Below, one piece after another: positions 10,367 to 35,200 of a DNA stretch of 64,000 bases; positions within the stretch are counted from its first letter, which is position 1, and each line of letters begins with the position of its first letter. Both the position numbers and the translations under genes were made by a program. This DNA is from an uncultured Clostridia bacterium (GTDB taxonomy: Bacteria > Bacillota > Clostridia > TANB77 > CAG-465), in NCBI GenBank assembly GCA_947626975.1, contig CANQUF010000001.1:22980-86979 (forward strand), given 5' to 3'. The notes beneath the pieces are model-generated. The model did no database searches. It saw only the letters and a program-made list of their open reading frames with translations, and was not told where the DNA came from.

Positions 10367-10732
10367 TTATACTATTTTTAAATTCATTATAACAATACCA
10401 ACTATTATAATACTTGCTCCTATTATTGAAGTTTTACTAATTTTTTCCTTAAATAACAAATTAGCAGATATCAAAGTTAATATTTGTACTATACCAGTAA
10501 CTATTGGCATTATATAACTCAAATCAAACATTACAACAAGTCTTGTAAATAACAAAAAACTACATAAATAACTTAAGAAGCCTAATGCACTAATAGGACT
10601 CATTGATAAACTTATATCTTTTTTATTTAGTTTGATTTTACCGGGATTTCCACCTTTTTTCATTAAAATAAGTCCTAAAAGTGTTAATATAAGGTAAACT
10701 ATTATCATTAAATATTTCATTTTTTCCCCCAA
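10367..10732 (-). CDS. small 4-TM EamA/SMR-like transporter subunit (ArnE/ArnF-like), paralog
   Basis: Clear paralog of the 9976..10365 product, sharing FDLSYIMPI and LLFKEKI. The two genes are separated by 1 nt. Confidence 0.5.
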   Translation of the reverse strand: MGEKMKYLMIIVYLILTLLGLILMKKGGNPGKIKLNKKDISLSMSPISALGFLSYLCSFLLFTRLVVMFDLSYIMPIVTGIVQILTLISANLLFKEKISKTSIIGASIIIVGIVIMNLKIV

Positions 10733-11518: not shown

Positions 11519-11531
11519 ATTTTCCTCCTAT

Positions 11532-15408: not shown

Positions 15409-17577
15409 CTAATACGAAACCTTAAAAATCAATAAACCATATTCATCATAAAGTTTTTCAAATTTTATATTATCATTATTATATTTTTCTAAATTTTTGC
15501 TAGATAAAACATATTTAACATTAATATCGTCTAATTTGTCAGGATTAATATTTATCTTTATAGAATCAGGATATAATAATTCTAAATTTGTATCAATATC
15601 ATCAATATTGACACTTACATGTGCATATCTATTATAGATTTTTCTTATTTCTTCTTTTTGACTATCCTCACCTAATAAAGTTTTATATAATTCATAATTA
15701 GGATAATAATTTGTAGAATTTATTACTCTTGCACCATTTGCAACAACGTAATTTGGAACTGTAAAATTTAAATTATCAACTAGCCATAAGGCGTCTTTAT
15801 TTTCATTTACAATTTTTTGTATTTCTAAAGATACAGGTTTGTTATATATTACATTTATTCCTTTTATGATAGGATTTACTATAGCACCAGATAATATTGC
15901 AACAGACGATAGTATTACCATAAAATATTTCTTATATTTTGGTTTATTTAAATTAAACATAAGATAAAACAAAATAAATACTATTGTGCCTGATATAAAA
16001 CCTGAAACTGGTCCTAAATAATTAGATGGTCCATACTTAACAGCAAAAATTAAACATATAGTTGCAAAAACTCCAGAGAGTATAAAGCTAACTTTTTCTT
16101 TTAATAATTTGGTATCATCTTTAAAATTATTAATTAAATATATAATTAACAATATTTGTATATATCCTAAAGCTATTGCTGCCCTATGTGAAGGTATCAT
16201 ATATAATAATGTTATCTTTGCAAATATTTTATTAGTAGGGATAAAACACCATATAGAAAGTAAGATACTAACTAGTAATAACGGTATTAAAAAACTTAAT
16301 ATCTTTTTAAAATCTTTGCTTTTTCTTTTTCTATATAAATAGAGTAAAGCAATAATAATCGGCATAGGATATAAAGATAGCATATTTGAATTTTCACAAG
16401 GGTTTATCATGTCCTTAAGCGGTACAAAAATCGAATATACATATGAAAACATGTTATCTTGAGAATTTCCACCAATTTCAAATCTCTCTCCTGGATAGTC
16501 AGCATTAAGCGTTGCTGTAATAGCCTCATTTGAGATGATAAAAAATCTAGCAACGATTAAAACAACTAAAATGATTGTTATAATTATAGATAATACATCA
16601 ATTTTATTAATATGAAAATCTTTTCTATTTTTTAAAATAATCCATATTAGAATTGCAAGATAAACATATGCAAATGAAATCATCCATGCTGGATATAGTA
16701 TAAATATATAACAAATAGCACAAAATCCCACACCTAATATGTATAGACTTCTAAAATACCATTTTTTTTCAAGCATAAATTTATCTATTAAAACTAGCGC
16801 CAATTGTCCAAATATTAGTATATCTACTATAAAATTAGAATACCACCATTGCACAGCTGGAGAAAAAGTTATTACAAGCATTCCGAATAATGATACAAGC
16901 TTGTTTTTCTTAGTAAGTAACATACAAAATTCAAATGATATTAACATTAATGCTACTAATCTACCATACCACCAAAAAGATAATCCTACTTCATTACCAA
17001 ATAGAAGATACCCGATATTAAAAGGTTTCCCTATAATTAGAATATCTTTAACAGGAGCATTTATTACTGTAAACATGTCTGTTTTTGTTCCTCTAATATT
17101 CATATTAAAATATGGATAATTTTCATTTTCTTGTAAATTTTGAGAAAATATTAAAGGAGAATTTACGGCCCATTCATCTGAACGTATTGTCCTTGCTTTT
17201 CCTAAAATAGGAGTATACGTACTATCATTAGCCTCACTTTGTACAAAAAAATTATATGATGTAATTGATGAGCCTGAATATTTCATTATCATAGCAAAAA
17301 AAAGGAATAATAAAGCTAAAATAAATCTTTTTTTATATATCCACTGATACATATCATTAAGCCTAAAAATTAAATGTAATCCGGTAAATAATATAACTCC
17401 TGCAATTATAATAATTCTGTCTATACTAAAAGCTCCACTTTTTTTATAAATCACAAAAAACTCCATAAGAAAAGATAGTAATACGGCAACTAAAAACAAT
17501 ATAATTATTTTGATAAGTTTAAAATTATCTTTATTAAAAAAATTCAAAACTTTATTTCTTATCTTCTTTTTTGTCAT
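15409..17577 (-). CDS. polytopic membrane protein, candidate GT-C glycosyltransferase / oligosaccharyltransferase (YfhO- or WsaB-like)
   Basis: At least 12 predicted TM helices over ~520 aa, followed by a ~200-aa soluble C-terminal domain. The genomic context is GT2 plus a small membrane protein. No motif-level assignment was possible. Confidence 0.4.
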   Translation of the reverse strand: MTKKKIRNKVLNFFNKDNFKLIKIIILFLVAVLLSFLMEFFVIYKKSGAFSIDRIIIIAGVILFTGLHLIFRLNDMYQWIYKKRFILALLFLFFAMIMKYSGSSITSYNFFVQSEANDSTYTPILGKARTIRSDEWAVNSPLIFSQNLQENENYPYFNMNIRGTKTDMFTVINAPVKDILIIGKPFNIGYLLFGNEVGLSFWWYGRLVALMLISFEFCMLLTKKNKLVSLFGMLVITFSPAVQWWYSNFIVDILIFGQLALVLIDKFMLEKKWYFRSLYILGVGFCAICYIFILYPAWMISFAYVYLAILIWIILKNRKDFHINKIDVLSIIITIILVVLIVARFFIISNEAITATLNADYPGERFEIGGNSQDNMFSYVYSIFVPLKDMINPCENSNMLSLYPMPIIIALLYLYRKRKSKDFKKILSFLIPLLLVSILLSIWCFIPTNKIFAKITLLYMIPSHRAAIALGYIQILLIIYLINNFKDDTKLLKEKVSFILSGVFATICLIFAVKYGPSNYLGPVSGFISGTIVFILFYLMFNLNKPKYKKYFMVILSSVAILSGAIVNPIIKGINVIYNKPVSLEIQKIVNENKDALWLVDNLNFTVPNYVVANGARVINSTNYYPNYELYKTLLGEDSQKEEIRKIYNRYAHVSVNIDDIDTNLELLYPDSIKININPDKLDDINVKYVLSSKNLEKYNNDNIKFEKLYDEYGLLIFKVSY

Positions 17578-17929
17578 TTATAGTCTCCTCCAAAGCTAAA
17601 ATTTTCGCCTTCAAAATAGAAATTTCTTGTATTAATAATATAGTTCTATTTGCTTGCTTAGTTAATATCATAGTAAGTGAAAAAATCAAACCAAATGCAA
17701 TAAAAATAGTTAAACAAAATATCATATTTGAGGTTTGCTCAAATCCTAATAAATTAGATATTAATTCTATAAAATTAGGTATTAATATAGCCACCATTAA
17801 CAATATTCCTGTTATAATCCAAAAAATAGCAATAGAAGATTGCATTTTCCTTTTTTTTACTGAACTTATAATTAGATATAAATATATCACTGTTATAATT
17901 ATTAAAGCTACTCTAAGTGTAATAGACAT
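17552..17929 (-). CDS. small membrane protein, DUF2304-like (GT2-associated)
   Basis: Three TM helices plus a C-terminal amphipathic/coiled segment (LIQEISILKAKILALEE). The pattern (R-KGK-x-LxxSxxxIWI...LLGxE-P-N-LF) matches the DUF2304 family, which usually neighbours a Dpm1-like GT2. Confidence 0.45.
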   Translation of the reverse strand: MSITLRVALIIITVIYLYLIISSVKKRKMQSSIAIFWIITGILLMVAILIPNFIELISNLLGFEQTSNMIFCLTIFIAFGLIFSLTMILTKQANRTILLIQEISILKAKILALEETINDKKEDKK

Positions 17930-17930
17930 A

Positions 17931-18671
17931 TTATTCCTCCTTATATTTTCTTCTTTTCTTAAATCTCATACTATCAATAATAATAGAAATAGAAACCTTA
18001 ATCATGTAATCTATACTTTTTAAAAAATTAATAGAAGATTTTCCATTTTCTCTTTCGTTCATTGATACAGGAACTTCTTTAATATTATAACCTTCTTTAA
18101 TAACATTAACAAGTGATTCAGGTTCAGGATAATCAGTTGGATAGTCTAAAGTAAATAATTTAATAATTTCTTTATTAACTGCTCTAAATCCAGAGGTAGG
18201 ATCAGTTATCTTTTTACTAGTACATATTTTAATAATTATAGATATAATGTTTTTTCCTAGCCTTCTCATAAAAGTAGATTTAAATTTACTAGATTCATTA
18301 TCTAAATACCTAGAACCAATACATATATCTACATTTTCATTAATTAATGGTTTACAAATATCATTTACATAATTTATATCATGTTGCCCATCACCATCAA
18401 ATTGAATTGCAATGTCATAATTATTTTGATATGCATAATGATATCCTGTTTGAACAGCACCACCAATTCCTAGATTACTTATTAGATTAATTACATTCAT
18501 ACTATACTTTTTACAAATTTCTAACGTATTATCAGTAGAAGCATCATTTATTATTATATAATCTAATTTTACTTTGCTTTCTTTTTTATTAAATTCTTTA
18601 ATTTTTTTATATACACTTAAAATGTTTTTAGATTCATTATAAGCAGGTATAATCAATAATATTTTTTTCAT
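17931..18671 (-). CDS. glycosyltransferase family 2 (Dpm1/GtrB-like polyprenyl-phosphate sugar synthase, soluble form)
   Basis: IPAYNE N-terminus, INDASTDNT and a DGDGQHD (DxD) motif. Stop/start abuts the DUF2304-like gene. Confidence 0.7.
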   Translation of the reverse strand: MKKILLIIPAYNESKNILSVYKKIKEFNKKESKVKLDYIIINDASTDNTLEICKKYSMNVINLISNLGIGGAVQTGYHYAYQNNYDIAIQFDGDGQHDINYVNDICKPLINENVDICIGSRYLDNESSKFKSTFMRRLGKNIISIIIKICTSKKITDPTSGFRAVNKEIIKLFTLDYPTDYPEPESLVNVIKEGYNIKEVPVSMNERENGKSSINFLKSIDYMIKVSISIIIDSMRFKKRRKYKEE

Positions 18672-20945: not shown

Positions 20946-23900
20946 TTAATCAAATTTAATTGATAATCCTGTATTTTTTTTACTTAAATTTGGACTAAAG
21001 AATATATCACCTTTATCGTAATATTTTTCCCATTTTTTTATAAATTCTTCATCATTTTTATAGTTTTCTCCTATAATAGATAATTCTTCTATACAAAATG
21101 ATACCATAGGATTTATAACAACTTGTTTTTCTATATCTAATATTTTTAAACAAGTATCTATACTTGTTAACAAACCTTCAAAATCTTCAGTAAATCCATT
21201 AATTGCATTATATACATTTCTATCAATCATAGCATATTTTATATAGACGCATGACAAATTATGTATTATCTCAAGCCTTTGCATATATGTTCCTATATCT
21301 TTAGATACACCTTTATATATAAAATCACCTACTCCATTCATACCTAATACTATACCACAATGTTCAACTAAATTTTGTGAATTATACAACTTAGTTCCAA
21401 CAATTCCAACACTTGGATCTTGACATATTCCTAATAAATTTTCAATAAATAATTCATCATCTATTTCTAATAATTCATTATCAAAAATTATAAAATAATC
21501 TCCTGTACTATTATTTATAGCTTTATTATAACTACATATTATATTTTTATCTCCAAGAATTATTTTATCTACATCAAAGTTTTGTGATTTAAAATCAGTA
21601 ATAAGCACTAATTCCAAATTAGAATATTTAGATATTTTTATTTTTTGAATAATCTTTTTAATATCATCTACACTTGTGTTAAGTCCATCTATTATTATAC
21701 TAACTTTTGGATTTCCTTTCACCTTATAAGTTATATCATAGCTTCCCGGAGATAAACCATCAGTTACTTCTACTTCTGTATTTAGGCTTCTCATTATATG
21801 ATCTTTTATTACTTTCTTACCAATTTCATACGCGTATGGTTTAGAATCAGCATTTTGAGCAGTTGAATTAATATGTGAACGCCAATGGTATAAAACTTTA
21901 GGAATATGAATGATATTTTTTGTATTTTCCACTGCTCTGCAAACTATATCATAATCCTGACTTCCATCATATTCACTCCTAAATCCACCTATTTTTTCTA
22001 ATAAATCTTTCTTAAATATACTAAAATGACAAATATAATTAGCACTATTTAAAGTATAAGGTGAAAAGTCTGGTTTGAAAAATACTCCAAATCTATTTGA
22101 AAGACTATTTTCAAATTTATCTTCATCAGTATATATAAATTCAACATAAGGATTATCATTTATTGCTTTAGCTACCTCATACAAAGAAAATTTTGGCAAT
22201 AGGTCGTCATGATCTAAAAGTCCAATATAATCTCCTGTTGCAAGTTTTAATGCCTCATTAGTATTCCCAGAAATACCTTTATTTTCAGAAATAACAGTAT
22301 ATTTAATTCTTGAATCTCCTTTAAAAAATTTTTTAGCAAACTCTAATGGTTTAGGACTACCATCTGCAAGACACAATTCCCAATTAGAATAAGTTTGTTC
22401 AAACATGCAGTCAATTAATTCTTTTAAAAACTTTTTGGGAGTATTGTATAAAGGTACTACAATACTAATTTTAGGTTTAAAAAAAATTTTTTCTTCCTTT
22501 TGTTTACTAATTTCAATAGGATTAGGCTCATTTTTCTTTATCCATTTTTCATATATATATTTCTCTGAATGTAACTTTTCAACTTTATTTCTAAATATTT
22601 TTTTTACGAAATTTCTTCTTTTACTATTTAATGGAAACAATTTTCCGAATTTTATATTATTATTTGTTATTTTTTCTAATTCTAAAGTTTTTATATAGTC
22701 TTGCTTTTTTTTGTTATCACTTTCTAATAATTTTATATATTCGTTTTGCCTAATATTATTTAATTCATAATCTTCCAATTTTCCCTTTAATACACTAACG
22801 TAATTTGTATCATATAAATTTTCTAAAGAATTTTTATTTATATATTGCATTGTACTATCTACAATTTGACTTTGAATATATTTTTCAATTTTATCAAATA
22901 ATTTAATATATTGAGTAATATTATATCTATAAAACATTTCTTCTTTTGAAATTACACTCTGAATTTCAATATTATAAGAATAAAGATTTCTTATTGCTCT
23001 ATAAATTATAAATTCTAGAGGAATTCCAGTAAAACACCACTCTTGATCAAAAAAAACAAATTTTTCATCATTGATAAAAGTATTTTCAAAAACTAAATCT
23101 ATATAACAATTTTTTAAAATTATTAAATTTTCATAATTTTCTTTATCATCTAATAAAATATTTTCATTTAGTCTATATCTTTCAGAGTTTTGTAATTTTA
23201 ACTTTATTTCTTTATACCATAAATCAATTATTTTATAAACATCTTCGAATTGTTTGTTTAATATTTTTTTTACTATTATTTTATCTAATGTATCACCACT
23301 TATATAAGGACTAATTATCTTATTACTATCCAAGTAATCTGCAATATTGAAGTTCAATTTTTTTAATTCTTTTGTATTTTTATCTATATTTATAAGATGA
23401 TTTTTTGAACATTCGTTAATGTTATTCTTTATTACTATATTTGAATATATCTTTGTTAATAATTGGTATTGTTTCTTTCTATTATTATTATAACTTACAA
23501 ATTTCACTTTGGATAAATTAGTATCATTGCTTGCACCAATTTCAATTAAATAAGAATTAGAAAAAAAAGGTAATTGTTTATTTTTAGTTATTTGCTTTAA
23601 TGCTCTTAACTCATCAAATGTTACTACACTACCTTTAGTATATAAAACATTATACATAAGTTTAGTAGAAGTTTCACTTGGAATATATTCATCTGAAAAA
23701 ATAACATTTGGTATTTTATAATTTGGGAAAGGATAGTAAAATTTATAATTTAAAAGTCCAAGTTCCTTTAATTTGTTTTCTATTTCGTACTTACTAAATA
23801 TTATTGTATCATTACTAAGTATTGATTCATATAAATTTAGCTCTTCATACTTTGAGCCAGCAAAATACGTAATTCCAAATCTATTATCAGTTGCAAGTAA

Positions 23901-24365
23901 AATTATAGTTGTTTTTTTTGTAAATTTTTTTAAAAATGGTAATAATTCTAGTCTATATAAAAGAATATAATCAAATTTTTCATCTAATGTTATACTATCA
24001 ACATCACCTACTATTATTTCTAAATTCAGTTTATCTTCATATCTTTTAGCAATTGCCTTAGCTTTATCTATTGAAGGTTCAATTGCCACAACTTTATCCA
24101 GCTTATCACATAACTCTCCAGTAATTTCACCAAAATTAGCACCTATTTCTAAAATAGAACATTTTGGATTAAAATCATACCAATTTACAATATTTCTTCT
24201 ATAATCTGATAAAGCATAAATTTTCTCTATATCAGGATATTTCTTTAATATTTCTTCATACTCACTATTTGTACAATTATTTATGCAATCTAATATGCTT
24301 TTTTCATTACTATTTATATCAGATTCTTCATTTTTCTGTGTAATATAGCTTAAGTTTAACTTCAA
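20946..24365 (-). CDS. trifunctional SAM-methyltransferase / coiled-coil / dual-GT2 glycosyltransferase (WsaE-like)
   Basis: N-terminal class-I MTase (LEIGANFGEITGEL...IVGDVD) paralogous to the 428-aa protein. A ~150-aa Lys/Glu-rich predicted coiled region lies at aa 480-620. Two GT2 domains follow (ISIVVPLYNTPKKF...DGS and VSIIIDGLNT...), paralogous to the whole 599-aa protein. Apparent TTG start with an AAGGAGG RBS. Confidence 0.65.
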   Translation of the reverse strand: MKLNLSYITQKNEESDINSNEKSILDCINNCTNSEYEEILKKYPDIEKIYALSDYRRNIVNWYDFNPKCSILEIGANFGEITGELCDKLDKVVAIEPSIDKAKAIAKRYEDKLNLEIIVGDVDSITLDEKFDYILLYRLELLPFLKKFTKKTTIILLATDNRFGITYFAGSKYEELNLYESILSNDTIIFSKYEIENKLKELGLLNYKFYYPFPNYKIPNVIFSDEYIPSETSTKLMYNVLYTKGSVVTFDELRALKQITKNKQLPFFSNSYLIEIGASNDTNLSKVKFVSYNNNRKKQYQLLTKIYSNIVIKNNINECSKNHLINIDKNTKELKKLNFNIADYLDSNKIISPYISGDTLDKIIVKKILNKQFEDVYKIIDLWYKEIKLKLQNSERYRLNENILLDDKENYENLIILKNCYIDLVFENTFINDEKFVFFDQEWCFTGIPLEFIIYRAIRNLYSYNIEIQSVISKEEMFYRYNITQYIKLFDKIEKYIQSQIVDSTMQYINKNSLENLYDTNYVSVLKGKLEDYELNNIRQNEYIKLLESDNKKKQDYIKTLELEKITNNNIKFGKLFPLNSKRRNFVKKIFRNKVEKLHSEKYIYEKWIKKNEPNPIEISKQKEEKIFFKPKISIVVPLYNTPKKFLKELIDCMFEQTYSNWELCLADGSPKPLEFAKKFFKGDSRIKYTVISENKGISGNTNEALKLATGDYIGLLDHDDLLPKFSLYEVAKAINDNPYVEFIYTDEDKFENSLSNRFGVFFKPDFSPYTLNSANYICHFSIFKKDLLEKIGGFRSEYDGSQDYDIVCRAVENTKNIIHIPKVLYHWRSHINSTAQNADSKPYAYEIGKKVIKDHIMRSLNTEVEVTDGLSPGSYDITYKVKGNPKVSIIIDGLNTSVDDIKKIIQKIKISKYSNLELVLITDFKSQNFDVDKIILGDKNIICSYNKAINNSTGDYFIIFDNELLEIDDELFIENLLGICQDPSVGIVGTKLYNSQNLVEHCGIVLGMNGVGDFIYKGVSKDIGTYMQRLEIIHNLSCVYIKYAMIDRNVYNAINGFTEDFEGLLTSIDTCLKILDIEKQVVINPMVSFCIEELSIIGENYKNDEEFIKKWEKYYDKGDIFFSPNLSKKNTGLSIKFD

Positions 24366-24395: not shown

Positions 24396-26195
24396 TTAAT
24401 ATTTTTTACCAACATCAATTACAAATAAATAGCTATCTAATCTAAAATTTTTATTAAAATATGGATCTCCATCATTTAATTGTTTTTCCCATTTATTCTT
24501 AAATAATTCTATTTCACTAGCAAATCTTTTTCTTTTTTCAGGAGTATCTTCATTTCCCCTAGTTTTTGATTCATAATGATATAATTTTGCAAAAGGTGTA
24601 TATACAACTAAATACCCTTTTTCCCTTACTTTCATACAAAAATCAACATCATTAAATGCTACTTTAAAATCTGTATCCAGACCATTTACCTGATCATACA
24701 CTTTAGATTTTACTAATAAACATGCTGCAGTAACTGCAGAGAAATTATTGATGATATTTGCTCTTGAAAAATACCCCGGATCATTATCTTTTATGTTTTT
24801 ATGAATATGTCCTGCTACTCCTCCTATACCAATTATTACTCCAGCATGCTGTACTGTATTATCATAATATAATAATTTTGCACCTACAATTCCTACATTG
24901 TTTTGTTGACAAATTCCAAGCATTTCTTCAATCCAATTTTTAGTTATAATTTCAACATCATTATTTAATAATAATATATACTCACCTTTAGCAAATTTTC
25001 TACCAAAATTATTTATTTTAGAAAAATTAAATTCTTTTTCTTTATAATTTACAACTTGTACATTTTGATACTTTTGTAATGAATTATAATATTCAAAAAT
25101 ATCATCTTTTTCACTATTATTTTCTACAATTATAATTTCATAATTTTTGTATGATGATTTAAAAATTGAATGTAAACATTTTTTTAAATCCTCCAAAGAA
25201 TCTTTGTTAGGAATTATAATACTAACTAAAGGAGCTCCAACAATATCATAATTTACTTTATATGTACCTGGAACTTCAAGTAACTCAACACTTCCTTTTA
25301 TATTAAGTCTTTTAAGTTGATCTTCTATTGCATTTTTCCCTGCAATAAAAGCATAAGATTTAGAGTCAGTATTTTTTGAAGTTGAATTCTCATGCGCTCT
25401 CCAATGATATAAAATCTTAGGAATATGAACTATATTATTTGTACTCTCAGTTGCTCTTAATATTATATCATAATCTTGTGCACCATCGTATTTACTTCTA
25501 AAATTACCAATTTTATCTAATAAAGTCTTTTTAAATATACTAAAATGACATATATAATTATAACTTCTTAAAGTATCTGGTGAAAAATCTGGCTTAAAAT
25601 GTGGATTTTTTCTTACATACTTAGAATCTATTATATCCTCATCAGAATATATAAATTCTACACCAGGATTATTGTTTATAGTTTGTACCACTTCAAATAA
25701 AGAAAATTTAGGCAATAAATCATCATGATCTAGCAATGCAATATATTCTCCTGTAGCTAGTTTTAAAGCTTCATTCGTATTCTCTGATATTCCTTTATTA
25801 ACTCCTAAAAATTTATATACAAACCTATTATCATTCTCAAAGTACTTTTTTAACAATTCGTTTTCTTTTTCACTACCATCTGCTAAACACACTTCAAAAT
25901 TGCTGTATGTTTGATTTTTTAAACTTTCTATTAATTCAGCAAAGAATTTTTCATTTGTATTATACATTGGTACTAAAATGCTAATTTTAGGAGTATATTT
26001 AAATTTATAGTTAACTTGTTTCTTTAATTGATTATTATTAGGTTCATTGTTTTTAATCCATGTTTTATAGTCTACATTAAATCTAGAATATGTTTTAAAA
26101 ATTTTTATTTTCCTGATGACTTTTCTAATTGTCTCTTTTATTCCATAATTCTTTAAGTAATAAAATAATTTCTTTAACAATTTCATATATAACAC
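24396..26195 (-). CDS. dual-domain GT2 glycosyltransferase (polymerase-type)
   Basis: Two GT-A domains (ISILVPMYNTNEKF...LADGS and VSIIIPNKDSLEDL...IIVENNS), each with DxD-type motifs (LLDHDD, LLLNNDVE). Strong similarity to residues ~600-1139 of the upstream 1139-aa protein. Confidence 0.7.
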   Translation of the reverse strand: MLYMKLLKKLFYYLKNYGIKETIRKVIRKIKIFKTYSRFNVDYKTWIKNNEPNNNQLKKQVNYKFKYTPKISILVPMYNTNEKFFAELIESLKNQTYSNFEVCLADGSEKENELLKKYFENDNRFVYKFLGVNKGISENTNEALKLATGEYIALLDHDDLLPKFSLFEVVQTINNNPGVEFIYSDEDIIDSKYVRKNPHFKPDFSPDTLRSYNYICHFSIFKKTLLDKIGNFRSKYDGAQDYDIILRATESTNNIVHIPKILYHWRAHENSTSKNTDSKSYAFIAGKNAIEDQLKRLNIKGSVELLEVPGTYKVNYDIVGAPLVSIIIPNKDSLEDLKKCLHSIFKSSYKNYEIIIVENNSEKDDIFEYYNSLQKYQNVQVVNYKEKEFNFSKINNFGRKFAKGEYILLLNNDVEIITKNWIEEMLGICQQNNVGIVGAKLLYYDNTVQHAGVIIGIGGVAGHIHKNIKDNDPGYFSRANIINNFSAVTAACLLVKSKVYDQVNGLDTDFKVAFNDVDFCMKVREKGYLVVYTPFAKLYHYESKTRGNEDTPEKRKRFASEIELFKNKWEKQLNDGDPYFNKNFRLDSYLFVIDVGKKY

Positions 26196-26210
26196 CTACA
26201 TAAATTATAT

Positions 26211-27350
26211 TTATTTAATATTTTTAAAAATATCCACACTATCAAGTTTTTCCCAATAACACTCAATTTCTTCTTTATCATCTAAATATTTTCTTCCAAA
26301 ATGCCCACCATTACAAGAATTAGTGTAAATAGGTGTACGTAAATTAAGTTTTTCAATTATTCCCTTTGGAGATAAATCAAAGTTATCATATATTGATTTA
26401 ATTATTTTGGCCTCTTCCACTTTATTAGTTCCTTTACAATTTACACTTATCGAAATTGGCTGTGCTACCCCAATTGCATAAGAAAGTTGAATTAGACATT
26501 CGTCTGCAATTTTTGACGCAACTATATTCTTAGCTAAGTATCTTGCCATATATGCAGCAGAACGATCAACTTTAGTAGGATCTTTTCCAGAGAAAGCACC
26601 GCCCCCATGTGGAGCATATCCGCCATATGTATCAACTATTATTTTCCTTCCTGTAAGACCAGCATCTCCCTCTGGTCCCCCAATAACAAATCTTCCAGTA
26701 GGATTAATAAGTATTTTAAAATCTTCATTTAAATTATATTTTCTAGCAATAACCTTCATAATGTGTTCGATAATATATTTTTTAAACTTGTCCTCATTAT
26801 AATTACTATCATGTTGAATAGACATTAACATTGTATCAATTCTTACTTTTTTTGATGTATAATCTAATGTTACTTGAGATTTCATATCAGGACCTGCCCA
26901 TTCAAATTTTCCAGATTTTCTTAGTACTGTAGCAAGTTTAACAAGTTCATGTGCCATAGTAATAGCTAGAGGCATAAATTGTGGTGTTTCAGTATTTGCA
27001 TATCCAAACATTATACCTTGATCACCTGCTCCACCAACATCATCATTTGTACCAAGTGCAATATCTTGTGATTGTTTTTGTAATAAATTTAATACTCTTG
27101 GAGTATATGTATATCCTATACTTTTAATAGTTTTTTTTACAATTTCTTCTACATTTATATTTGCTTTTGTTGTAATTTCACCTGAAAGAATAATAAAATC
27201 ATCTTTTGCCATTGTTTCACATGCAACTCTAGAATATTTATCTTCTTTTAAACAAGCATCAAGTATTGAGTCTGATATCATATCACATACATGATCAGGA
27301 TGTCCGATTGATACTGCTTCAGATGTAAATAATTTTTTATACTCACTCAT
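26211..27350 (-). CDS. metK: S-adenosylmethionine synthetase (methionine adenosyltransferase), divergent copy embedded in glycan locus
   Basis: MetK signatures: FTSEAVSIGHPDHVCDMISDSILDA, GAGDQG and GGGAFSGKDPTKVDRSAAY. The 27-nt upstream gap leaves no room for an S-box riboswitch. Confidence 0.85.
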   Translation of the reverse strand: MSEYKKLFTSEAVSIGHPDHVCDMISDSILDACLKEDKYSRVACETMAKDDFIILSGEITTKANINVEEIVKKTIKSIGYTYTPRVLNLLQKQSQDIALGTNDDVGGAGDQGIMFGYANTETPQFMPLAITMAHELVKLATVLRKSGKFEWAGPDMKSQVTLDYTSKKVRIDTMLMSIQHDSNYNEDKFKKYIIEHIMKVIARKYNLNEDFKILINPTGRFVIGGPEGDAGLTGRKIIVDTYGGYAPHGGGAFSGKDPTKVDRSAAYMARYLAKNIVASKIADECLIQLSYAIGVAQPISISVNCKGTNKVEEAKIIKSIYDNFDLSPKGIIEKLNLRTPIYTNSCNGGHFGRKYLDDKEEIECYWEKLDSVDIFKNIK

Positions 27351-27377
27351 AAAAAACCTCTTTTCTTTTTAATTTCT

Positions 27378-28664
27378 TTATTTTTTTATTTTCTTGTTAA
27401 TTTTTCTTATTATATTTGTATATCTCCATGTTCTTGAATGATATATTTTCTCTAATTCTTCCTTTAATAACTTTGACTCATTAGTTAATTTACAAACGGA
27501 ATTATTTAAATTTGCAATATTTTCTTCTTGTGTCATATATCTGTTAGAAAAAAATCTACAAAGATTCTCATTTTCTCCTTTTTCACCAAGTTTTAATTCT
27601 TTTTTAAGTTCACCAGAATTTGTTATATTAATTTTTTCTCTTTTTTTATCTTTAAACAAATCCAATTTTTCTTTTTCATATACTCCATTACTTGTTTTCG
27701 TAATCATATATAAATCGTTTAAATTAGCCTTACTATTGAATACTGCAAAATCAATTTCATTTTTTAACTTATCTTCACTACATTCAATGAAAAAAGAATT
27801 AGCAAAAAAGTCAAATTTATTTTCTTTAATTAACTCTTTATATGCTTTTTTTTCTTCAAAATTTAGTATTGTATTATCATAATAATATGGAGAATATAAA
27901 TTATCTATATCTTCTTCTAGTGGCAAACATTCATCAGAAAATATAACATTTGGTAATTTATAATCTGGAAGAGGATAATAAAATCTAACATTTGATAATC
28001 CATTTCTAGTAAGTAGATCCTGAATTTCTTTTTTTCCAAATGTAATAGGCCCTTTTTTGTTACTATATCCAACAATACCATCATATTTTATACTTGTATG
28101 ATCTTCAACTGCACCTGCAAAATATTTAATACCAAATTTATTTTCAATTGCAATTAAAAGCTTTCCATCAGGTTTTAATAGCTTTTTAATATTAGTTAAA
28201 AATTCATCAAAAGGATTATCTGATTTAGTAAATAAATTAGCATATTCTAAAACCCCAATAAGAGTAATATAATCAAATTTTTTGTCAAATTTTATATCAT
28301 TCAAATTACCTACAATAATTTCTAAATTATCACATTTTTTATGTTTAGAAGCAATAACACTTGCCCTCTGCTTAGAAAGCTCAATTGAAGTAACAGATTT
28401 TGCTTTTTTACAAAGTACTCCAGTAATAGCACCCATTCCAGCTCCAATTTCAAGAATATCAGAATTTTTCTTAAATGGATACCAATTTAATATATTTTCT
28501 CTTATATATGTAAAATGATAAAAAACAGGCCATCTCATATCATTAGATAATATATCATTATATTTATCTCTAGAAAAATTTTCAGAATATTTCATTATAT
28601 CTTTTTCTACTTCACCATCACAATATGAATCTTCTCCATTATAATAATCATAGTTTATTTTCAT
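27378..28664 (-). CDS. class-I SAM-dependent methyltransferase with C-terminal coiled-coil (WbdD-like chain terminator candidate)
   Basis: MTase motif I LEIGAGMGAITGVL, an acidic motif II and LLKPDGKLLIA. The C-terminal ~60 aa are predicted coiled-coil. It overlaps wzt by 17 nt. Confidence 0.65.
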   Translation of the reverse strand: MKINYDYYNGEDSYCDGEVEKDIMKYSENFSRDKYNDILSNDMRWPVFYHFTYIRENILNWYPFKKNSDILEIGAGMGAITGVLCKKAKSVTSIELSKQRASVIASKHKKCDNLEIIVGNLNDIKFDKKFDYITLIGVLEYANLFTKSDNPFDEFLTNIKKLLKPDGKLLIAIENKFGIKYFAGAVEDHTSIKYDGIVGYSNKKGPITFGKKEIQDLLTRNGLSNVRFYYPLPDYKLPNVIFSDECLPLEEDIDNLYSPYYYDNTILNFEEKKAYKELIKENKFDFFANSFFIECSEDKLKNEIDFAVFNSKANLNDLYMITKTSNGVYEKEKLDLFKDKKREKINITNSGELKKELKLGEKGENENLCRFFSNRYMTQEENIANLNNSVCKLTNESKLLKEELEKIYHSRTWRYTNIIRKINKKIKK

Positions 28665-29997
28665 TATTTATCCCCTTTTTTAGTTCTATCTGTGTTTTTA
28701 TATCAAATACACCTAAACAATCTCTATTTGCTAGGACTTCTACAAACATAACATCATATTTTCTTTGAAAAACTTCAAGATTACCGTTATGATCCAATTT
28801 TGTACATCCAAATGATAATGTATACTTATCTGGAGCTAATGGTAATACTTGTTTAAACTCAACAATAACAATATCTCCCTTTTCATAAGTTCCTGTAATT
28901 TTTTTATATGCAAAAGTATTTGCACCACATAATTCTAGCCCTTTAAAATCTTTAATTGACATTGCAAATATTGGCTCATCTATTTGCTCAATAAACTTAA
29001 CTTTCATTTTAATAACTACTTCATCATTATTATTTATTGTAGTCAAAAAATTATTATTAACATCAAATATACCATAATCTATTATTTCAGCCTTCCCGTT
29101 ACCATATACAAGCTCATCAGAATTAAGAGTGAAATGTTCTTTCCAAACCTCACCTTTTTTTTCTTTTCTCTTCTCTTCTTTTATAACATTTAGTTCTTTT
29201 TCTTCTTTTTCCTGTTCATCAATTTGTTTTTTATCAAGTCCTACAATTATTTTTTTATATTTATCTACACCTTGTTTTACATCTCCATCATATATCTTTC
29301 TTCCAGATGAAATTATAATAGCCCTATTGCAATTTTTTATTACATCTACTATATTATGAGTAACAAAAAGTATTGTTTTTCCTTTTTTCTTAAATTCTTC
29401 AAATTTTTTAAAACACTTTAATTGAAAAGCCATATCACCTACAGATAAAACTTCGTCGACTATTAAAACTTCAGGATCTACATTTATAGCACAGGCAAAT
29501 GCTAAACGTGCAAACATACCTGACGAATAGGTTTTTACTGGCTGATATAAATGTTCACCTATATCAGCAAACTCTATAATTTCTTTTTCTGTTTGTTTTA
29601 CTTGTTCCATTGTAAGGCCCATAACTAAACCATTTTGATATATATTTTCATATCCTGTAAGTTCAGGATTAAAAGCTGTACCTAGCTCTAGTAAAGAACT
29701 TATTTTCCCATTTACTTCTATATTACCAGATGTTGGAGTTACTACTCCAGTAATCATTTTTAAAAGTGTAGATTTACCAGCACCATTTTTCCCAAGTATT
29801 CCTACAACTTCTCCTTTATTTATGTTTAAATTTAAATCTTGAATCGCATTAAATGTACTATGTCTAGAGACTGCCGGAATTACAGTTTCTATTAGCCTAT
29901 CTAACTTTCTATTATACATTTTGTACTCTTTATTTAAATTAGTTATACAAATTACTGGTTTTTCTTTATTATTTTTGATTTTTATATCTTTTGCCAT
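28648..29997 (-). CDS. wzt: polysaccharide ABC exporter ATP-binding protein with C-terminal extension (Wzt/TagH/RgpD-like)
   Basis: Walker A GKNGAGKST, signature YSSGM, Walker B LIVDE and an H-loop. About 190 extra C-terminal residues are predicted beta-rich, consistent with a glycan-binding domain. Confidence 0.8.
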   Translation of the reverse strand: MAKDIKIKNNKEKPVICITNLNKEYKMYNRKLDRLIETVIPAVSRHSTFNAIQDLNLNINKGEVVGILGKNGAGKSTLLKMITGVVTPTSGNIEVNGKISSLLELGTAFNPELTGYENIYQNGLVMGLTMEQVKQTEKEIIEFADIGEHLYQPVKTYSSGMFARLAFACAINVDPEVLIVDEVLSVGDMAFQLKCFKKFEEFKKKGKTILFVTHNIVDVIKNCNRAIIISSGRKIYDGDVKQGVDKYKKIIVGLDKKQIDEQEKEEKELNVIKEEKRKEKKGEVWKEHFTLNSDELVYGNGKAEIIDYGIFDVNNNFLTTINNNDEVVIKMKVKFIEQIDEPIFAMSIKDFKGLELCGANTFAYKKITGTYEKGDIVIVEFKQVLPLAPDKYTLSFGCTKLDHNGNLEVFQRKYDVMFVEVLANRDCLGVFDIKTQIELKKGINNENKL

Positions 29998-30006
29998 TTT
30001 TATTTA

Positions 30007-30984
30007 TCACACCCTTTTTATTAATGATCTTATTTTATATAGTGGCTTAACTAAAATAGGAAAATTAAATATAAAAAATAAAGCTAAATATAATAAAATT
30101 CTTTCATTTTTATATATTTTATTAAAAGTTATTAATCCTTTAAAGTTCATATATTTTTTATCTTTTATATTTAAATAGTATTGTAAATATTTTTTATTAA
30201 GTTCATTTTGATAATTTGTAAATAAATTACTATTTTCAATAAAAGTAGAAAAATTATTAATTCTTAAATTTATTAAATGCTCCCTTACGCTGTCAAAATC
30301 ACTTAATTTATCAACATATCTAGATGAGCCTACTTGATTATTTGAATGTTGTCTATACTTTATAGTTGGTATATCTAAATATACTACTTTACCTTTTAAA
30401 GCTACAATAAGTCCTATCCAATAGTCATATAAAATATTTTTATTATTTGGAAATGGAAGAAAGTTTATAATCCAACTTTTTTTTGAAAGTATAGTACATC
30501 CTGTAATAGTATTATATAATACTTCTAAGTCATAACCATTATTTATGCATTTTTTTATTTTACGATTATAATTTTTTAATCTATTAAACGATTTATTTAT
30601 AGTAATCAATTTTTCATCAACAACTTCTAAATCTGTAAATACTAAATCTGCTTTTTCTTCAATTAGTTTGTTATATGTTAATTCTATTTTATCTTTATTC
30701 CATATATCATCTTGATCAGCAAACATAAAATATTTATTTTCAACTTTAGATAACAAAAATTCAAAAGTTTTATTTGAGCCTATATTTTTAGAATTTTTAT
30801 ATAACTCAATTCTATTATCTTTTTTTATATAATCTTCTATTATTGATACTGTATTATCCGTAGAGCAATCATCACATACTAATAATCTAAAGTTGATATA
30901 TGTTTGATTTATTATAGAATTTATTAATTCACCTATATACTTTTTTCCATTATATGTAGCAAGAAGTATATCAATTTTTTCCAT
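30007..30984 (-). CDS. glycosyltransferase family 2 (rhamnosyltransferase-like, RgpB/WbbL-type)
   Basis: ATYNGKKYIGELINSIINQTY...CDDCSTDNT N-terminus and a DQDDIW acidic motif. It sits between wzt and wzm. Confidence 0.7.
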   Translation of the reverse strand: MEKIDILLATYNGKKYIGELINSIINQTYINFRLLVCDDCSTDNTVSIIEDYIKKDNRIELYKNSKNIGSNKTFEFLLSKVENKYFMFADQDDIWNKDKIELTYNKLIEEKADLVFTDLEVVDEKLITINKSFNRLKNYNRKIKKCINNGYDLEVLYNTITGCTILSKKSWIINFLPFPNNKNILYDYWIGLIVALKGKVVYLDIPTIKYRQHSNNQVGSSRYVDKLSDFDSVREHLINLRINNFSTFIENSNLFTNYQNELNKKYLQYYLNIKDKKYMNFKGLITFNKIYKNERILLYLALFFIFNFPILVKPLYKIRSLIKRV

Positions 30985-30995
30985 GGTTGCTCTCC

Positions 30996-31787
30996 TTATA
31001 ATACATCTGCAAAATCTTTTTTATTTTTCTTAAATACATAATTACTCCATATAAATATTATGAATACAAAAATCCAAAATATTATAGTTGGTATTCCATG
31101 CATTGCTAATATATGTGTTTCACCTGTAAAAGCACATCTAAATCCATTTACTAAATAAGTAAATGGCATACAACTTACTATCTTATATAATAGTTGATGA
31201 CCTTGTAGCATTGATATATTCCAAATAATTGGAGTAAACCAAAATAAAAGTTGCATAAGCACACCCAAAAGTTGTACAAAGTCAGGAACCAAAGTACAAA
31301 TTGCAGAGGTTAGCCTAGTTATAGAAATTATAAGAGCATATACTGCTATAAGTAAATATATTAATTCTATTACATTTATAATATATCCATATATAGCACA
31401 TACAACAATTGATATTATAAATAGAAATATTCCTACAATACCTGCAGATGTTAATGATATAACAGGAATTATATCAACAGGAAAAACTACTTTTTTTACT
31501 AAATAACTATAATTTCTTATAGAACCACTTGCATTTAAAATGCTGTCATTTATTAACATCCACATGGACATACCTGGTAAGAACCAAACAACATAAGGAT
31601 AATTACCAGCACTACCAGTTTTTAATATATATTGAAAAACAATAACATAAGTAAGCATAAATATAAATGGAGAAACAAAGCCCCATATGGCTCCTAGACT
31701 TGTACCCGCAAATCTATTTTTAAAATCATTTTTCCCTAGTTGAGCAACTAGTTTTCTATTCTTAATCAATGTTTTTATAAATTCCAT
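30996..31787 (-). CDS. wzm: polysaccharide ABC exporter permease (ABC-2 type; Wzm/TagG/RgpC-like)
   Basis: Six predicted TM helices, 263 aa, paired with wzt. Confidence 0.75.
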   Translation of the reverse strand: MEFIKTLIKNRKLVAQLGKNDFKNRFAGTSLGAIWGFVSPFIFMLTYVIVFQYILKTGSAGNYPYVVWFLPGMSMWMLINDSILNASGSIRNYSYLVKKVVFPVDIIPVISLTSAGIVGIFLFIISIVVCAIYGYIINVIELIYLLIAVYALIISITRLTSAICTLVPDFVQLLGVLMQLLFWFTPIIWNISMLQGHQLLYKIVSCMPFTYLVNGFRCAFTGETHILAMHGIPTIIFWIFVFIIFIWSNYVFKKNKKDFADVL

Positions 31788-31904
31788 TTCTATTCCCCTT
31801 TAATATTATGATATAAGTATGGTACAATTATATCATTAGTATTATTTTTTTTCAACAAAAAAACATATAAATCGTTAATAATTTATATGTTTTTATAGTA
31901 TTTA

Positions 31905-32867
31905 CTAATATTCTTTATTCTCATACCATTCAATTGTCTGTCTTAATCCTTCTTCAACTGTAACTGATGGCTCCCATCCAAGTTCTCTTTTTATTTTAGA
32001 AGAATTAATAGCATATCTATAATCATGCCCTTTTCTATCTTCAACAAAACTAATTAAATCCTCTGATTTTCCAAGTTGTTTTAATATTGTTTTTACAATC
32101 TCTAAGTTAGTTTTTTCGTTATTTCCACCAACGTTATATATCTCACCTTTAACACCTTTATGAAGTACAGTATCAATTGCAATACAATGATCCTTAACAA
32201 ATAACCAATCTCTTATGTTATTGCCTGTCCCATATATAGGTAATTTTTCACCTGCTTTTGCTTTTTTTATCATTAACGGAATTAACTTTTCTTCATGCTG
32301 ATTAGGTCCATAATTATTTGAACATCTTGTTATACAAACATTCATTTTAAAAGTTTCACCGTATGCTCTTACAACTAAATCAGATCCTGCTTTTGAAGCA
32401 GAATATGGACTATTAGGTGCAAGTGGTAATGTCTCTACAAACATATCATCACCATCTTTTAAAGTTCCATAAACTTCATCAGTAGAAACATGAACAAATC
32501 TATTTTCAGAGCCTTCTCCCCATACTCTTTTGCATGCTTCAATTAAAGAGTTAGTTCCCAATACATTATTTTCAGTAAATGTAAGTGGCCTTTTAATACT
32601 ATTATCAACATGAGATTCAGCAGCAAAATGAACTACCGCATCGATGTTATACTTTTTTAAGGTTTCTTCTACTTTATCAATATCACAAATATCTGCTTTT
32701 ACAAATTCATATTTACCTTCCGATGGTTTTAAATTATCAATATTTGCAGCATATGTCATTTTATCATATACAACATATGTATATTTATCTTTATATTTTT
32801 CTACCATATAATTTACAAAATTTGATCCAATAAATCCTGCTCCACCTGTTATTAATATATTTTTCAT
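31905..32867 (-). CDS. rmlB: dTDP-glucose 4,6-dehydratase
   Basis: ITGGAGFIGSNFV, catalytic YSASKA, and 320 aa. Confidence 0.9.
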   Translation of the reverse strand: MKNILITGGAGFIGSNFVNYMVEKYKDKYTYVVYDKMTYAANIDNLKPSEGKYEFVKADICDIDKVEETLKKYNIDAVVHFAAESHVDNSIKRPLTFTENNVLGTNSLIEACKRVWGEGSENRFVHVSTDEVYGTLKDGDDMFVETLPLAPNSPYSASKAGSDLVVRAYGETFKMNVCITRCSNNYGPNQHEEKLIPLMIKKAKAGEKLPIYGTGNNIRDWLFVKDHCIAIDTVLHKGVKGEIYNVGGNNEKTNLEIVKTILKQLGKSEDLISFVEDRKGHDYRYAINSSKIKRELGWEPSVTVEEGLRQTIEWYENKEY

Positions 32868-32881
32868 TTAATTTCCTCCAT

Positions 32882-33475
32882 TTATTTTAGATTTTTAAAT
32901 AAATCTGACTTTTTTAATTCTTGTAAAGATGGCCATTTAGCATCTTTCTCAGATGTTAAAAGTTCTTCTTTAGAAATATTATCCATAGGCCAATTAATAC
33001 CTACATCTGGATCATTCCATTTAAGTCCACCCTCAGATTCATGATTATATACATCATCACATTTATATGCAAATTCTGCTTCATCAGATAGTACTAAAAA
33101 TCCATGAGCAAATCCTCTTGGTATCATAAACATTTTTTTATTTTCTTCAGAAAGAATCACACCTTCCCATTTACCATAAGTTTTACTATTTGGTCTTAAA
33201 TCAACAGCCACATCAAAAACTTTACCTTTTAGACACCTTACAAGTTTTGCTTGTGAATTTTCTTTTTGAAAATGAAGACCTCTTAAAACACCTTTCTTGG
33301 ATTTAGATTGATTGTCTTGAACAAATTTATTTGTTATTCCAATTTCAGCGAACTCACTTTCACTATATGTTTCCATAAAATACCCTCTACTATCGCCAAA
33401 AACTGTTGGTTCAATAATATATACTCCCTCAATACTAGTATCAGTTTTTTTAAATTTTCCCATTAAATTATTCAC
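32882..33475 (-). CDS. rmlC: dTDP-4-dehydrorhamnose 3,5-epimerase
   Basis: Cupin-fold RmlC pattern ([17 protein letters not shown]), 197 aa. Confidence 0.85.
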
Positions 33476-34334
33476 CTACTATTCTTTTAATATATTTACC
33501 ATACTCAGTCTTTTTATATTTATCTGCAAATTCTAAAGCTTTAGTTTTATCAATCCATTTATTTTTATAAGCTATTTCTTCTAAACACGCAATTTGTATT
33601 CCTTGTCTTAATTCAATTGCTTTTACAAAATCGGCAGCATCATTAAGTCTATCTGCAGTTCCTGTATCAAACCAAGCAAATCCACGTCCTAGAGGTATAA
33701 CTTTAAGTTTGCCTTCTTCCATATATACTCTGTTTACATCTGTAATTTCTAATTCTCCTCTCGCTGATGGTTTAATTTCTTTTGCAATTTTAACTACATC
33801 ATTATCATAAAAATACAACCCTGGAACAGCCAAGTTTGATTTTGGAATTTTTGGCTTTTCTTCTATTGATATAGCATTACCATTTTTATCTATTTCAACA
33901 ACTCCATAAGAAGTAGGATCAGAGACTTCATATCCAAAAATTACTCCACCCTCTTTTAGATTTCCTGCATCTTTTAACATATCTTCAAGTCCAGGACCAT
34001 AGATCATATTGTCTCCTAATATTAATGCAACATTATCATTACCAATAAAATCAGCACCCAATCTAAAAGCATCTGCAAGTCCAACTGGCTTTTCTTGTAC
34101 TTTATATGAAAGACTCATGCCAAGCTCAGAACCATCTCCTAGTAACATTTCAAACATAGGCAAATGCACAGGTGTAGATATAATTAATACCTCTCTTATA
34201 CCAGCTTGCATTAATGTTGATAATGGATAATATATCATTGGTTTATCATATACAGGTAACATTTGTTTTGAAACTGCTAAAGTAACAGGATATAATCTTG
34301 TGCCGCTTCCACCAGCTAAAATAATTCCTTTCAT
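33468..34334 (-). CDS. rmlA: glucose-1-phosphate thymidylyltransferase
   Basis: [11 protein letters not shown] motif. The likely true ATG (MKGIILAGG) is at 34334 with a GGAGG RBS; the listed ORF start at 34379 is an upstream extension. ATG overlaps the rmlD stop (TAATG). Confidence 0.9.
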
Positions 34335-35200
34335 TATTTTAATTCCTCCTTTAAATACTCTTTTAATGCATCCTCCCAATTTTTTGGATAGATTCCAACA
34401 CTATGTAATTTATTTTTTAGTAATTTACTATTTGCTGGTCTATCACTAGAATTTGGATACATTTCTTTATACTGTTTAGAAGTTATAGGTATAACTTTTG
34501 TAGATACATTTGCAAATTCAAATATCTTTTTTGTAAAATCACTCCATACAGTAAATCCTTCATTTGTTGAATGATATATACCATACTTTGGTTCTTTTTC
34601 TAGAATTTGTTCTATAATTTCACAAAGACTTGTAGTAGAAGTTGGACTGCCATGTTGATCATTTACAACACTTATTTCATCTTTTGTTTCAGATAATTTA
34701 AGCATTGTTTTAACGAAGTTTTTTCCTCTTAGTCCATATAACCACGCTGTTCTTAAAATATAGTATTTATTAGCCTTCATGGCATTTTGTTCACCTAAAT
34801 ATTTTGTTTTCCCATAAGCACTCACTGGATTTGCAGGCATATCTTCAGTATATTCTTCTGAGATATCTAATTTTCCATCAAAAACATAATCAGTACTAAT
34901 TTGTATTAAAGTAGCATCTACTAAGTTAGTAGCTTCTGCAATATTTTCTAAGGCAATTCCGTTTACTGAATTTGCTAAATCAAAATTTGTTTCACAACCA
35001 TCAACATTTGTATATGCTGCGCAATTTATTATATAATATGGATTTATTTTTTTAACTTCGTTTATCACATCTTGTTTATTACATATATCTAAAGTTTCAA
35101 TAGTTGTTTTATATACATCATATTCTTTATTATTAGATAATCTTTCGTATAACTCTCCTCCAAGCATTCCATCTTGACCAATAACTAAAATCTTTTTCAT
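34334..35200 (-). CDS. rmlD: dTDP-4-dehydrorhamnose reductase
   Basis: RmlD-like Rossmann N-terminus ([12 protein letters not shown]), YGKTK catalytic motif, 288 aa. Confidence 0.85.

Follow-up and report, generated by a model that had tools for sequence, protein, structure and literature searches.

A putative termination and export locus for a rhamnan, with an embedded metK gene, in an uncultured lineage of gut Clostridia

Nearly everything established about the cap-dependent export of polysaccharides through Wzm/Wzt comes from the O antigens of Gram-negative bacteria. A layout in which a coiled coil acts as a ruler has been shown experimentally to govern chain length in WbdD, in WbbB, and in ORF6 of Klebsiella pneumoniae O7. 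Here, we describe a stretch of 64,000 nt from an uncultured Clostridia bacterium (contig CANQUF010000001.1), referred to below as the window, in which wzm and wzt genes are found together with the gene of a 428-residue methyltransferase (MT1, also MT428), with metK, which encodes an S-adenosylmethionine (SAM) synthetase, and with the gene of a 1139-residue multidomain protein (MT2-GT; this protein and its homologues are called MT2). All coordinates count from window position 1.

Among the related proteins, WbdD of Escherichia coli O9a comprises 708 residues; its kinase domain is at 211–459, and the coiled coil is part of a C-terminal domain that spans some 250 residues (460–708) (PMC3482155). 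In K. pneumoniae O7, ORF6 combines a methyltransferase, a cryptic kinase of about 220 residues with a catalytic Asp, a coiled coil, and two dTDP-rhamnose-dependent modules of glycosyltransferase family 2 (GT2). It adds a methyl-phosphate cap to rhamnose, and the glycosyltransferase modules are present in some of its orthologues and absent from others (Kelly et al. 2024, PMC11231755). A Gram-positive example is WsaE of Geobacillus stearothermophilus, in which a methyltransferase is joined to two rhamnosyltransferase domains, and a 2-O-methyl-rhamnose cap is placed on the S-layer glycan; the wzm, wzt, and wsaE genes overlap (PMC2943079).

The export and termination module of the window is a Gram-positive member of this known type. 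We propose that the locus is the core for termination and export in a rhamnan operon dependent on an ATP-binding cassette (ABC) transporter and that its metK is most likely the sole copy, a reading that we consider probable, with room for doubt. The polymer is proposed to be a cell-wall or surface polysaccharide of a spore-forming gut lineage. The original prediction, which was made from the letters of the window, had presented wzt, MT1, and metK as a module for chain termination and export with its own SAM supply. The coordinates of the three open reading frames (ORFs), the 27-nt gap before metK, and the 17-nt overlap of wzt and MT1 are as it gave them, according to the ORF list and the sequence, and it was also right about the identity of MetK and the extension of Wzt. 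Its view of MetK as divergent and of MT1 as the bearer of a WbdD-like coiled coil proved to be overstated.

In the ORF list of the window, which has a G+C content of about 25%, the glycan genes form a long array on the minus strand. The genomic context was surveyed in ten species-level metK loci of the gut lineage, the window included. The close relatives are assemblies from the chicken, rabbit, and human gut that are labelled “uncultured Clostridia bacterium”. Alignments comprised 51 homologues for MT1 and its structural model, 120 homologues for the survey of the MT1 tail, and 56 sequences for MT2.

The evidence for a transporter that recognizes a cap comes from Wzt. Its nucleotide-binding domain occupies residues ~20–258 and is followed by a charged linker and then by a C-terminal carbohydrate-binding domain. 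The whole protein matches the Wzt of Aquifex aeolicus in the PDB (8DKU, 2.9e-70) and TagH/TarH (~1e-63), and it contains the Pfam domain ABC_tran (2.7e-24). The extension, which the original prediction likened to the cap-recognizing domain of the O9a Wzt, is indeed a homologue of it: the Wzt_C family scores 113.9 bits, with a gathering threshold of 30.4, and positions 3–143 of the 143 in the profile are covered. The last 183 residues alone, when compared with the PDB, match 2R5O, the crystal structure of the C-terminal domain of E. coli O9a Wzt (E = 4.9e-13, chain residues 38–183), so that a carbohydrate-binding fold is clearly indicated. The match to the carbohydrate-binding domain of A. aeolicus (6O14/8DKY) is weaker (~3e-5). 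Thus, the ABC domain, a Wzt_C domain above the gathering threshold, and a Wzm partner one gene upstream are all present, as in the class of Wzt proteins with a carbohydrate-binding domain. In comparison with the Wzm-Wzt systems of E. coli O9a and K. pneumoniae O3, the same family is found at the identical position of Wzt and is matched over the whole domain, and the transporter is likewise paired with Wzm and a methyltransferase gene. The differences are that the host is Gram-positive, that the polymer would be a rhamnan and not a mannan, and that a GT2 gene separates wzm and wzt. The likeness to the O9a protein is one of domain homology, and cap binding is predicted. A Wzt with a carbohydrate-binding module (CBM) implies a terminal signal on the exported chain.

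The candidate for the enzyme that would produce this signal is MT1, which is, as originally annotated, a class I SAM-dependent methyltransferase (Pfam Methyltransf_11/12/25). Its start codon is backed by the residues M1, N4, and Y8, none of which varies among the 51 homologues, and motif I (LEIGAGMGAIT) is invariant in 51/51. An AlphaFold (AF2) model built from these homologues was obtained with a mean predicted local distance difference test score (pLDDT) of 90.4 and a predicted template modelling score of 0.87. In the model, a class I core is followed by a beta-rich segment (300–378) and by two helices (379–408 and 411–427), which together amount to ~49 residues. The original prediction regarded this end of the protein as a ruler of the WbdD kind. 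The model contains no WbdD-like kinase domain, since only helices follow the beta-rich segment; a sequence search of the PDB returned only generic methyltransferases and no WbdD, and the same was true of the best matches to the modelled fold. In addition, the helical tail is missing in 16 of the 120 homologues. With neither a kinase domain nor a long coiled coil, MT1 is a methyltransferase and does not qualify as a ruler of the WbdD type. Compared with WbdD, MT1 alone has ~49 helical residues where the E. coli protein has the region 460–708, and only MT1 and the 1139-residue protein together would resemble it, as a SAM-dependent end-capping activity linked to a coiled-coil ruler. The role of a capping methyltransferase, which was part of the same prediction, is retained for MT1 as probable.

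The tail of MT1 (27378–27500, minus strand) has a composition of its own: a short coil, then the motif S(K/R)SW(K/R)xT(x)P(F/L)R, and then basic residues. The motif occurs in about 100 of the 120 homologues (P0124–P0243) and is absent from the forms of ~325 residues. It may serve for docking or membrane association.

The long coiled coil of the locus belongs to the 1139-residue protein, which lies outside the region considered in the original prediction. Residues 1 to ~285 form a degenerate methyltransferase-like domain that is paralogous to MT1 (35% identity over ~350 residues; MT1 aligns only to its residue ~355 and lacks the DxxxxN/DxEW region). The AF2 model of residues 1–614 (pLDDT 87.9) shows this domain, a middle domain of ~230 residues, and long helices. 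The middle domain is confidently modelled and has the invariant residues K313, D423xxxxN428, and D440-Q-E-W443, which is kinase-like; its isolated profile had no match in the PDB or Pfam, so the kinase fold is not confirmed. Helices 520–573 and 583–611 make up a modelled coiled coil of ~90 residues. Residues 587–1127 comprise two GT2 modules and are 44.5% identical to the 599-residue double-GT2 protein encoded between metK and MT2-GT. In the related loci, the homologues are stand-alone proteins of 570–630 residues encoded 3′ of metK. The 1139-residue protein is therefore described here as a candidate terminator scaffold, ruler, and polymerase.

Its order of modules is that of K. pneumoniae O7 ORF6, with which the locus also shares rml genes and a CBM-bearing Wzt in the cluster, and the stand-alone forms of the relatives end after the coiled coil, as is reported for ORF6 orthologues. 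ORF6 was compared by its published description only. In contrast to ORF6, the middle domain is not followed by an Ig-like CBM, the kinase fold of this domain is unconfirmed, and the SAM motif of the methyltransferase-like domain is degenerate while a separate paralogous methyltransferase, MT1, is present. The WsaE system is similar in that a Gram-positive rhamnan follows the ABC-transporter route and a single protein joins an N-terminal methyltransferase to a pair of rhamnosyltransferase domains; overlapping genes and a cluster that includes rmlABCD are further common features. It differs in that neither an S-layer protein nor a WsaB-like oligosaccharyltransferase was identified here, in that the window has an extra stand-alone methyltransferase and metK, and in that a GacI/GacJ-like side-chain module is present, which suggests a cell-wall polysaccharide.

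The decay of the MT2 methyltransferase-like domain is visible in motif I. Among the 56 sequences, the central Gly is kept in 5 and replaced by Asn in 32, and the first Gly is found in 36. The window protein has GANFG at this place and a deletion of ~15 residues after the FDYI strand. With motif I intact in MT1 and decayed in MT2, we think that MT1 is the competent methyltransferase here and the partner of the kinase-like, coiled-coil, and polymerase protein. A different division of labour would be that MT1 decorates rhamnose or side-chain residues within the chain, while a cap is added by the 1139-residue protein alone or does not exist. Every related cluster has retained two paralogous methyltransferase genes next to each other, 40 of the 56 MT2 homologues still give good methyltransferase matches in Pfam (best 1.4e-11), and heavy internal methylation would make a metK within the operon easier to understand. 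However, the degenerate motif and the deletion in the window protein, the overlap of MT1 with wzt and its position directly after wzt in most loci, and the terminal signal implied by the CBM of Wzt make this alternative unlikely.

The pathway that we favour for the glycan can be outlined as follows. dTDP-rhamnose from RmlABCD would be polymerized in the cytoplasm by GT2 modules. The 1139-residue protein, with its two GT2 modules, its coiled coil, and its methyltransferase-like and kinase-like head, would act as the chain-length ruler. As the SAM-binding motif of the methyltransferase-like domain has decayed, the adjacent MT1 would methylate the chain end. The cap would be an O-methyl group or, provided that the kinase-like domain has activity, methyl-phosphate. 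The C-terminal domain of Wzt would then admit only capped chains to the Wzm/Wzt exporter. The literature searched contains no description of a system in which, as seems to be the case here, the methyltransferase function has passed to a separate, stand-alone paralogue.

The second question raised by the locus is why metK is a part of it. The gene appears to encode a normal, fully functional SAM synthetase. MetK scores 496 bits against TIGR01034 (cutoff 309.4), contains PF00438, PF02772, and PF02773, and matches methionine adenosyltransferases (MATs) of the PDB at ~1e-118. The best solved relative there is a short MAT of 377 residues (6RJS/6RK5). MetK was compared with 78 other bacterial MetKs, in which 100 columns are conserved to at least 95%; it keeps 97 of these. 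Its median identity to the set is 53%, while that among the 78 is 56%. The protein is thus motif-complete, as had been predicted, and ordinary in its divergence. A change from GHPDK to GHPDH is fixed in the lineage, and homologues with 74–93% identity occur by the hundreds in gut metagenomes. In a rough neighbour-joining tree, the lineage MetK groups with the types of Bacilli, Erysipelotrichales, and Mollicutes, away from most MetKs of metagenome-assembled Clostridia. This grouping would mean either a deep branching of the lineage or a horizontal acquisition of metK; a transfer from Bacilli or Mollicutes was considered and set aside, as the tree is too weak.

The gene is tightly packed. It starts 27 nt after MT1, with a Shine-Dalgarno sequence (AAGAGG) in the gap, and the ORF of the 599-residue protein, which has a GTG start, begins 15 nt past its stop codon, so the window offers no space outside coding sequence for a separate metK promoter or terminator. 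A search of the whole window with Rfam gave no family at the gathering threshold, and with E ≤ 1 nothing but a chance match to a snoRNA was found in 26000–32100. The lack of an S-box leader reported earlier was thus reproduced. Rfam likewise detected no SAM riboswitch within 10 kb in nine metK loci of the lineage. As positive controls, five outgroup metK genes have an S-box upstream and one has a SAM-I/IV riboswitch; seven others, from Clostridia and Bacilli, have none. Since the outgroup is mixed in this respect, the absence of the riboswitch in the lineage is real but not special.

Linkage of metK to the methyltransferase and wzt genes is not a peculiarity of the window. The gene lies inside wzm/wzt/methyltransferase clusters in nine of the ten species-level loci, at three positions. 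The order wzm-GT2-wzt-MT1-metK followed by MT2 is found in the window and in L002, L009, L089, L091, and L095; MT2 comes directly after metK in these five relatives, and one glycosyltransferase gene lies between them in the window. In L010, the order is wzt-metK-MT2. In L005 and L099, it is wzm-metK-(toxin-antitoxin)-gtrA-GT2-wzt-MT1-MT2, where the nucleotidyltransferase/HEPN toxin-antitoxin pair right after metK (L005, 11148–11871) is missing from the collinear L099 and L097. A supposed duplication flanking the metK insert of L005 was dismissed, as the 42-nt overlap is merely a similar region of ribosome-binding site and start. The remaining group, L006/L093, has rplU-rpmA-metK-GT1-GT2 and an O-antigen-ligase-like gene further on, with no methyltransferase or wzt gene within 10 kb; this MetK is 78% identical, has intact motifs, and is encoded beside rpmA and a Wzy-type glycan cluster. 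In some strains of this type, an integrated element with a serine recombinase, a Mob_Pre relaxase, and a Bro-N protein has been inserted beside a tRNA gene on the upstream side of rplU-rpmA-metK (L007/L008, 2930–7677; L094, 735–6947); L006 and L093 are without it.

The chromosomal flanks vary by species (mreBCD-pbp2, ackA-IMPDH, or era-recO-gltX). The order MT1/metK/MT2 is kept over MetK identities from 77% to 88% and spans all three sub-clades of the rough neighbour-joining tree, so it is probably ancestral in the lineage. Outside the lineage (≤59–60% identity), a glycan cluster of this sort was found beside metK in 0 of 78 genome loci. Full-text searches of the literature for metK in O-antigen or polysaccharide clusters gave no relevant paper, and a lineage-wide embedding of metK between two methyltransferase genes is not described in the literature searched. 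The nearest analogue is provided by the secondary-metabolite clusters of actinomycetes, which contain SAM synthetase genes that adjoin the methyltransferases of the pathway. There, however, the genomes are large, the genes are additional copies, and the pathways that they supply yield small molecules.

Two opposite explanations of this linkage have to be weighed. According to one of them, metK is the sole copy with a housekeeping role, and its presence among the glycan genes is functionally meaningless, the result of chance shuffling in recombination hot spots. It is in line with this that metK is kept where the methyltransferases are absent, that S-box absence is common in outgroup loci of Clostridia and Bacilli, and that metK of L099 is preceded by a spacer of 180 nt and followed by a hairpin with a T-run, which suggests a transcription unit of its own. 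Nevertheless, glycan genes are the immediate neighbours of metK in every lineage locus examined, and these loci represent four or more chromosomal contexts; this constancy, the conserved order of MT1, metK, and MT2, and the lack of room in the window for separate signals leave pure hitch-hiking rather doubtful.

The other explanation, which is that of the original prediction, is that metK is an additional SAM synthetase dedicated to the pathway and free of SAM feedback and that MT1 is a WbdD-type terminator with a coiled-coil ruler. The recurrence of metK in these clusters, at three insertion points and in different neighbourhoods, would fit a dedicated gene. The same may be said of the collinear relatives without metK, which give it the look of an optional cassette, of the toxin-antitoxin pair beside the copy in L005, and of the S-box that is present with the two most similar metK genes of the outgroup (59% and 56% identity) and absent in the lineage. 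The terminator half suffers from the points given above: MT1 has a short helical tail, no kinase domain, and no specific similarity to WbdD, and the long coiled coil belongs to its neighbour. As for metK, the 78%-identical gene persists by rpmA with no methyltransferase or wzt gene in the surrounding 10 kb, its divergence is no greater than that of ordinary MetKs, closely related clusters exist without it, and S-box absence is also common outside the lineage. A cap takes one methyl group per chain, so that a special supply would not be quantitatively compelling. In a genome scan with query-specific peptides, which has low sensitivity, no second metK of the two lineage genomes was found among the matches listed. 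A scan of metagenome contigs gave a single lineage match of 1.3 kb, too short for gene context. As a whole, this explanation is improbable. A bolder form of it, in which metK was recruited repeatedly as a cluster-borne, dedicated synthetase and serves a split terminator, with MT1 acting in trans on a pseudo-methyltransferase, kinase, and coiled-coil ruler, is equally hard to credit. If it were true, no earlier example of a surface-glycan pathway with a SAM supply of its own would exist, and heavy, not only terminal, methylation would be implied.

We prefer the reading in which metK is the only and essential copy of the cell and hold it, on balance, to be the better-founded expectation. It is favoured because the gene has survived in loci that have neither the methyltransferases nor Wzt, because its conservation is ordinary and its abundance matches the whole lineage, and because a cap costs so little SAM. 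The gene would have stood between two methyltransferase genes since the ancestor of the lineage, co-transcribed and without a SAM riboswitch, and SAM synthesis would ride on the promoter of the glycan operon, not the reverse. Several points weigh against the proposal for the locus. The glycan is known from its genes alone, which also form the basis of the suggested cap chemistry, and the residues methylated by MT1 could lie within the chain and not at its end. Moreover, metK occupies three positions in the clusters; clusters with close MT1 homologues exist without metK (L096, L097, and L098), and L097 is collinear with L005 and L099 (76–81% nucleotide identity) except for the metK insert. For this reason, a mobile or accessory gene fits as well as a relocated essential gene. 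The linkage is too consistent for a single accident, and the mobility and the metK-less sister clusters keep the idea of a dedicated copy alive.

The full tool-kit, with a CBM-bearing Wzt, a coiled-coil multidomain candidate for terminator and polymerase, and a methyltransferase, is thus encoded in uncultured gut Clostridia. If metK is the sole copy, an essential metabolic gene would be transcriptionally tied to cell-wall glycan synthesis throughout the lineage. As an additional copy, it would represent a novel type of cofactor supply dedicated to one pathway. In both cases, the practical value will stay modest as long as the glycan has not been characterized.

The features of the locus are collected in Table 1. 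On the minus strand, radC, mreB, mreC, mreD, and the PBP2 gene lie upstream and are followed by a terminator-like hairpin. The glycan locus begins with a GT2 gene, a phosphomannomutase/phosphoglucomutase gene, rmlD, rmlA, rmlC, and rmlB; then come wzm, the second GT2 gene, wzt, MT1, metK, and the genes of the 599-residue and 1139-residue proteins. Wzm has an NCBIfam match of the galactan Wzm/RfbD-like type that is below the cutoff, and wzm is upstream of wzt in the related loci too; the GT2 gene in the interval is kept in L002, L009, L010, L091, and L095. The 599-residue protein, which matches TIGR01556 (rhamnosyltransferase-like) below the cutoff, is a candidate rhamnosyltransferase or polymerase component.

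Table 1. Positions of the main features of the glycan locus in the window.
Feature	Coordinates	Strand	Description	Supporting match
rmlB, rmlC, rmlA, rmlD	31905..35200	-	dTDP-L-rhamnose synthesis	Pfam GDP_Man_Dehyd/Epimerase, dTDP_sugar_isom, NTP_transferase, RmlD_sub_bind
Promoter-like site, rmlB-wzm spacer	31827..31855	-	sigma-A, extended -10	TTGAAA-17-TGaTATAAT
wzm	30996..31787	-	ABC-2 permease of glycan exporter	Pfam ABC2_membrane 6.2e-12
GT2 glycosyltransferase, between wzm and wzt	30007..30984	-		Pfam Glycos_transf_2 3.5e-27
wzt	28648..29997	-	449 aa	
Wzt_C carbohydrate-binding domain	28699..29112	-	residues 296-433 of Wzt	Pfam PF14524 8e-33
MT1 methyltransferase	27378..28664	-	428 aa	
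metK	26211..27350	-	379 aa	
Double-GT2 protein	24396..26195	-	599 aa, GTG start	Pfam Glycos_transf_2, two stretches, 2.7e-43
MT2-GT	20946..24365	-	1139 aa, multidomain	

The spacer between rmlB and wzm (31788–31904, minus strand) contains an AT-rich hairpin with a T-run after rmlB, ahead of the promoter-like site. This site is the best match on the minus strand (11/12, with the TG present), although it is a match to the consensus only, and promoter-like sites in this AT-rich region are not above those in shuffled sequences. Together, the hairpin and the site suggest that the rml genes and the genes from wzm through metK are separate transcription units. The site would be the likely start of the second unit, and wzm through metK and beyond would probably be one transcript.

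On the 3′ side of the 1139-residue protein, the array continues with a GT2-GT4 protein, a GT2 (246 residues) and a small DUF2304 membrane protein (125 residues; 17552–18671, minus strand), a DUF7657/DUF7654 protein of 722 residues (15409–17577, minus strand), and large surface proteins. The GT2 and DUF2304 pair resembles the streptococcal GacI/GacJ, the makers of a lipid-linked side-chain sugar for rhamnan, and the trio with the DUF7657/DUF7654 protein is also present in L091, L095, L096, and L097. Two adjacent small EamA/SMR-like membrane proteins of 129 and 121 residues (9976–10732, minus strand), with a GT2 and a polysaccharide deacetylase as neighbours (8139–9949, minus strand), have the appearance of a flippase with two subunits that would act on a lipid-linked sugar. 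The large surface proteins directly downstream of the glycan locus (1784–5649 and 10736–15296, minus strand) have Big_2, cadherin-like, SH3_3, and type I dockerin domains.

On the other side of the locus, the window contains a gerA/gerAC/spore-permease operon (43699–47754, minus strand) and, beside it, the gene of a collagen-repeat protein that resembles BclA and has a BclA_C domain of the exosporium type (47908–48813, plus strand). Germination genes of the GerA type and a BclA-like collagen protein indicate a spore former. The exosporium BclA proteins of bacilli bear methylated rhamnose glycans, and the rhamnose and methyl machinery of the window might serve spores as well.

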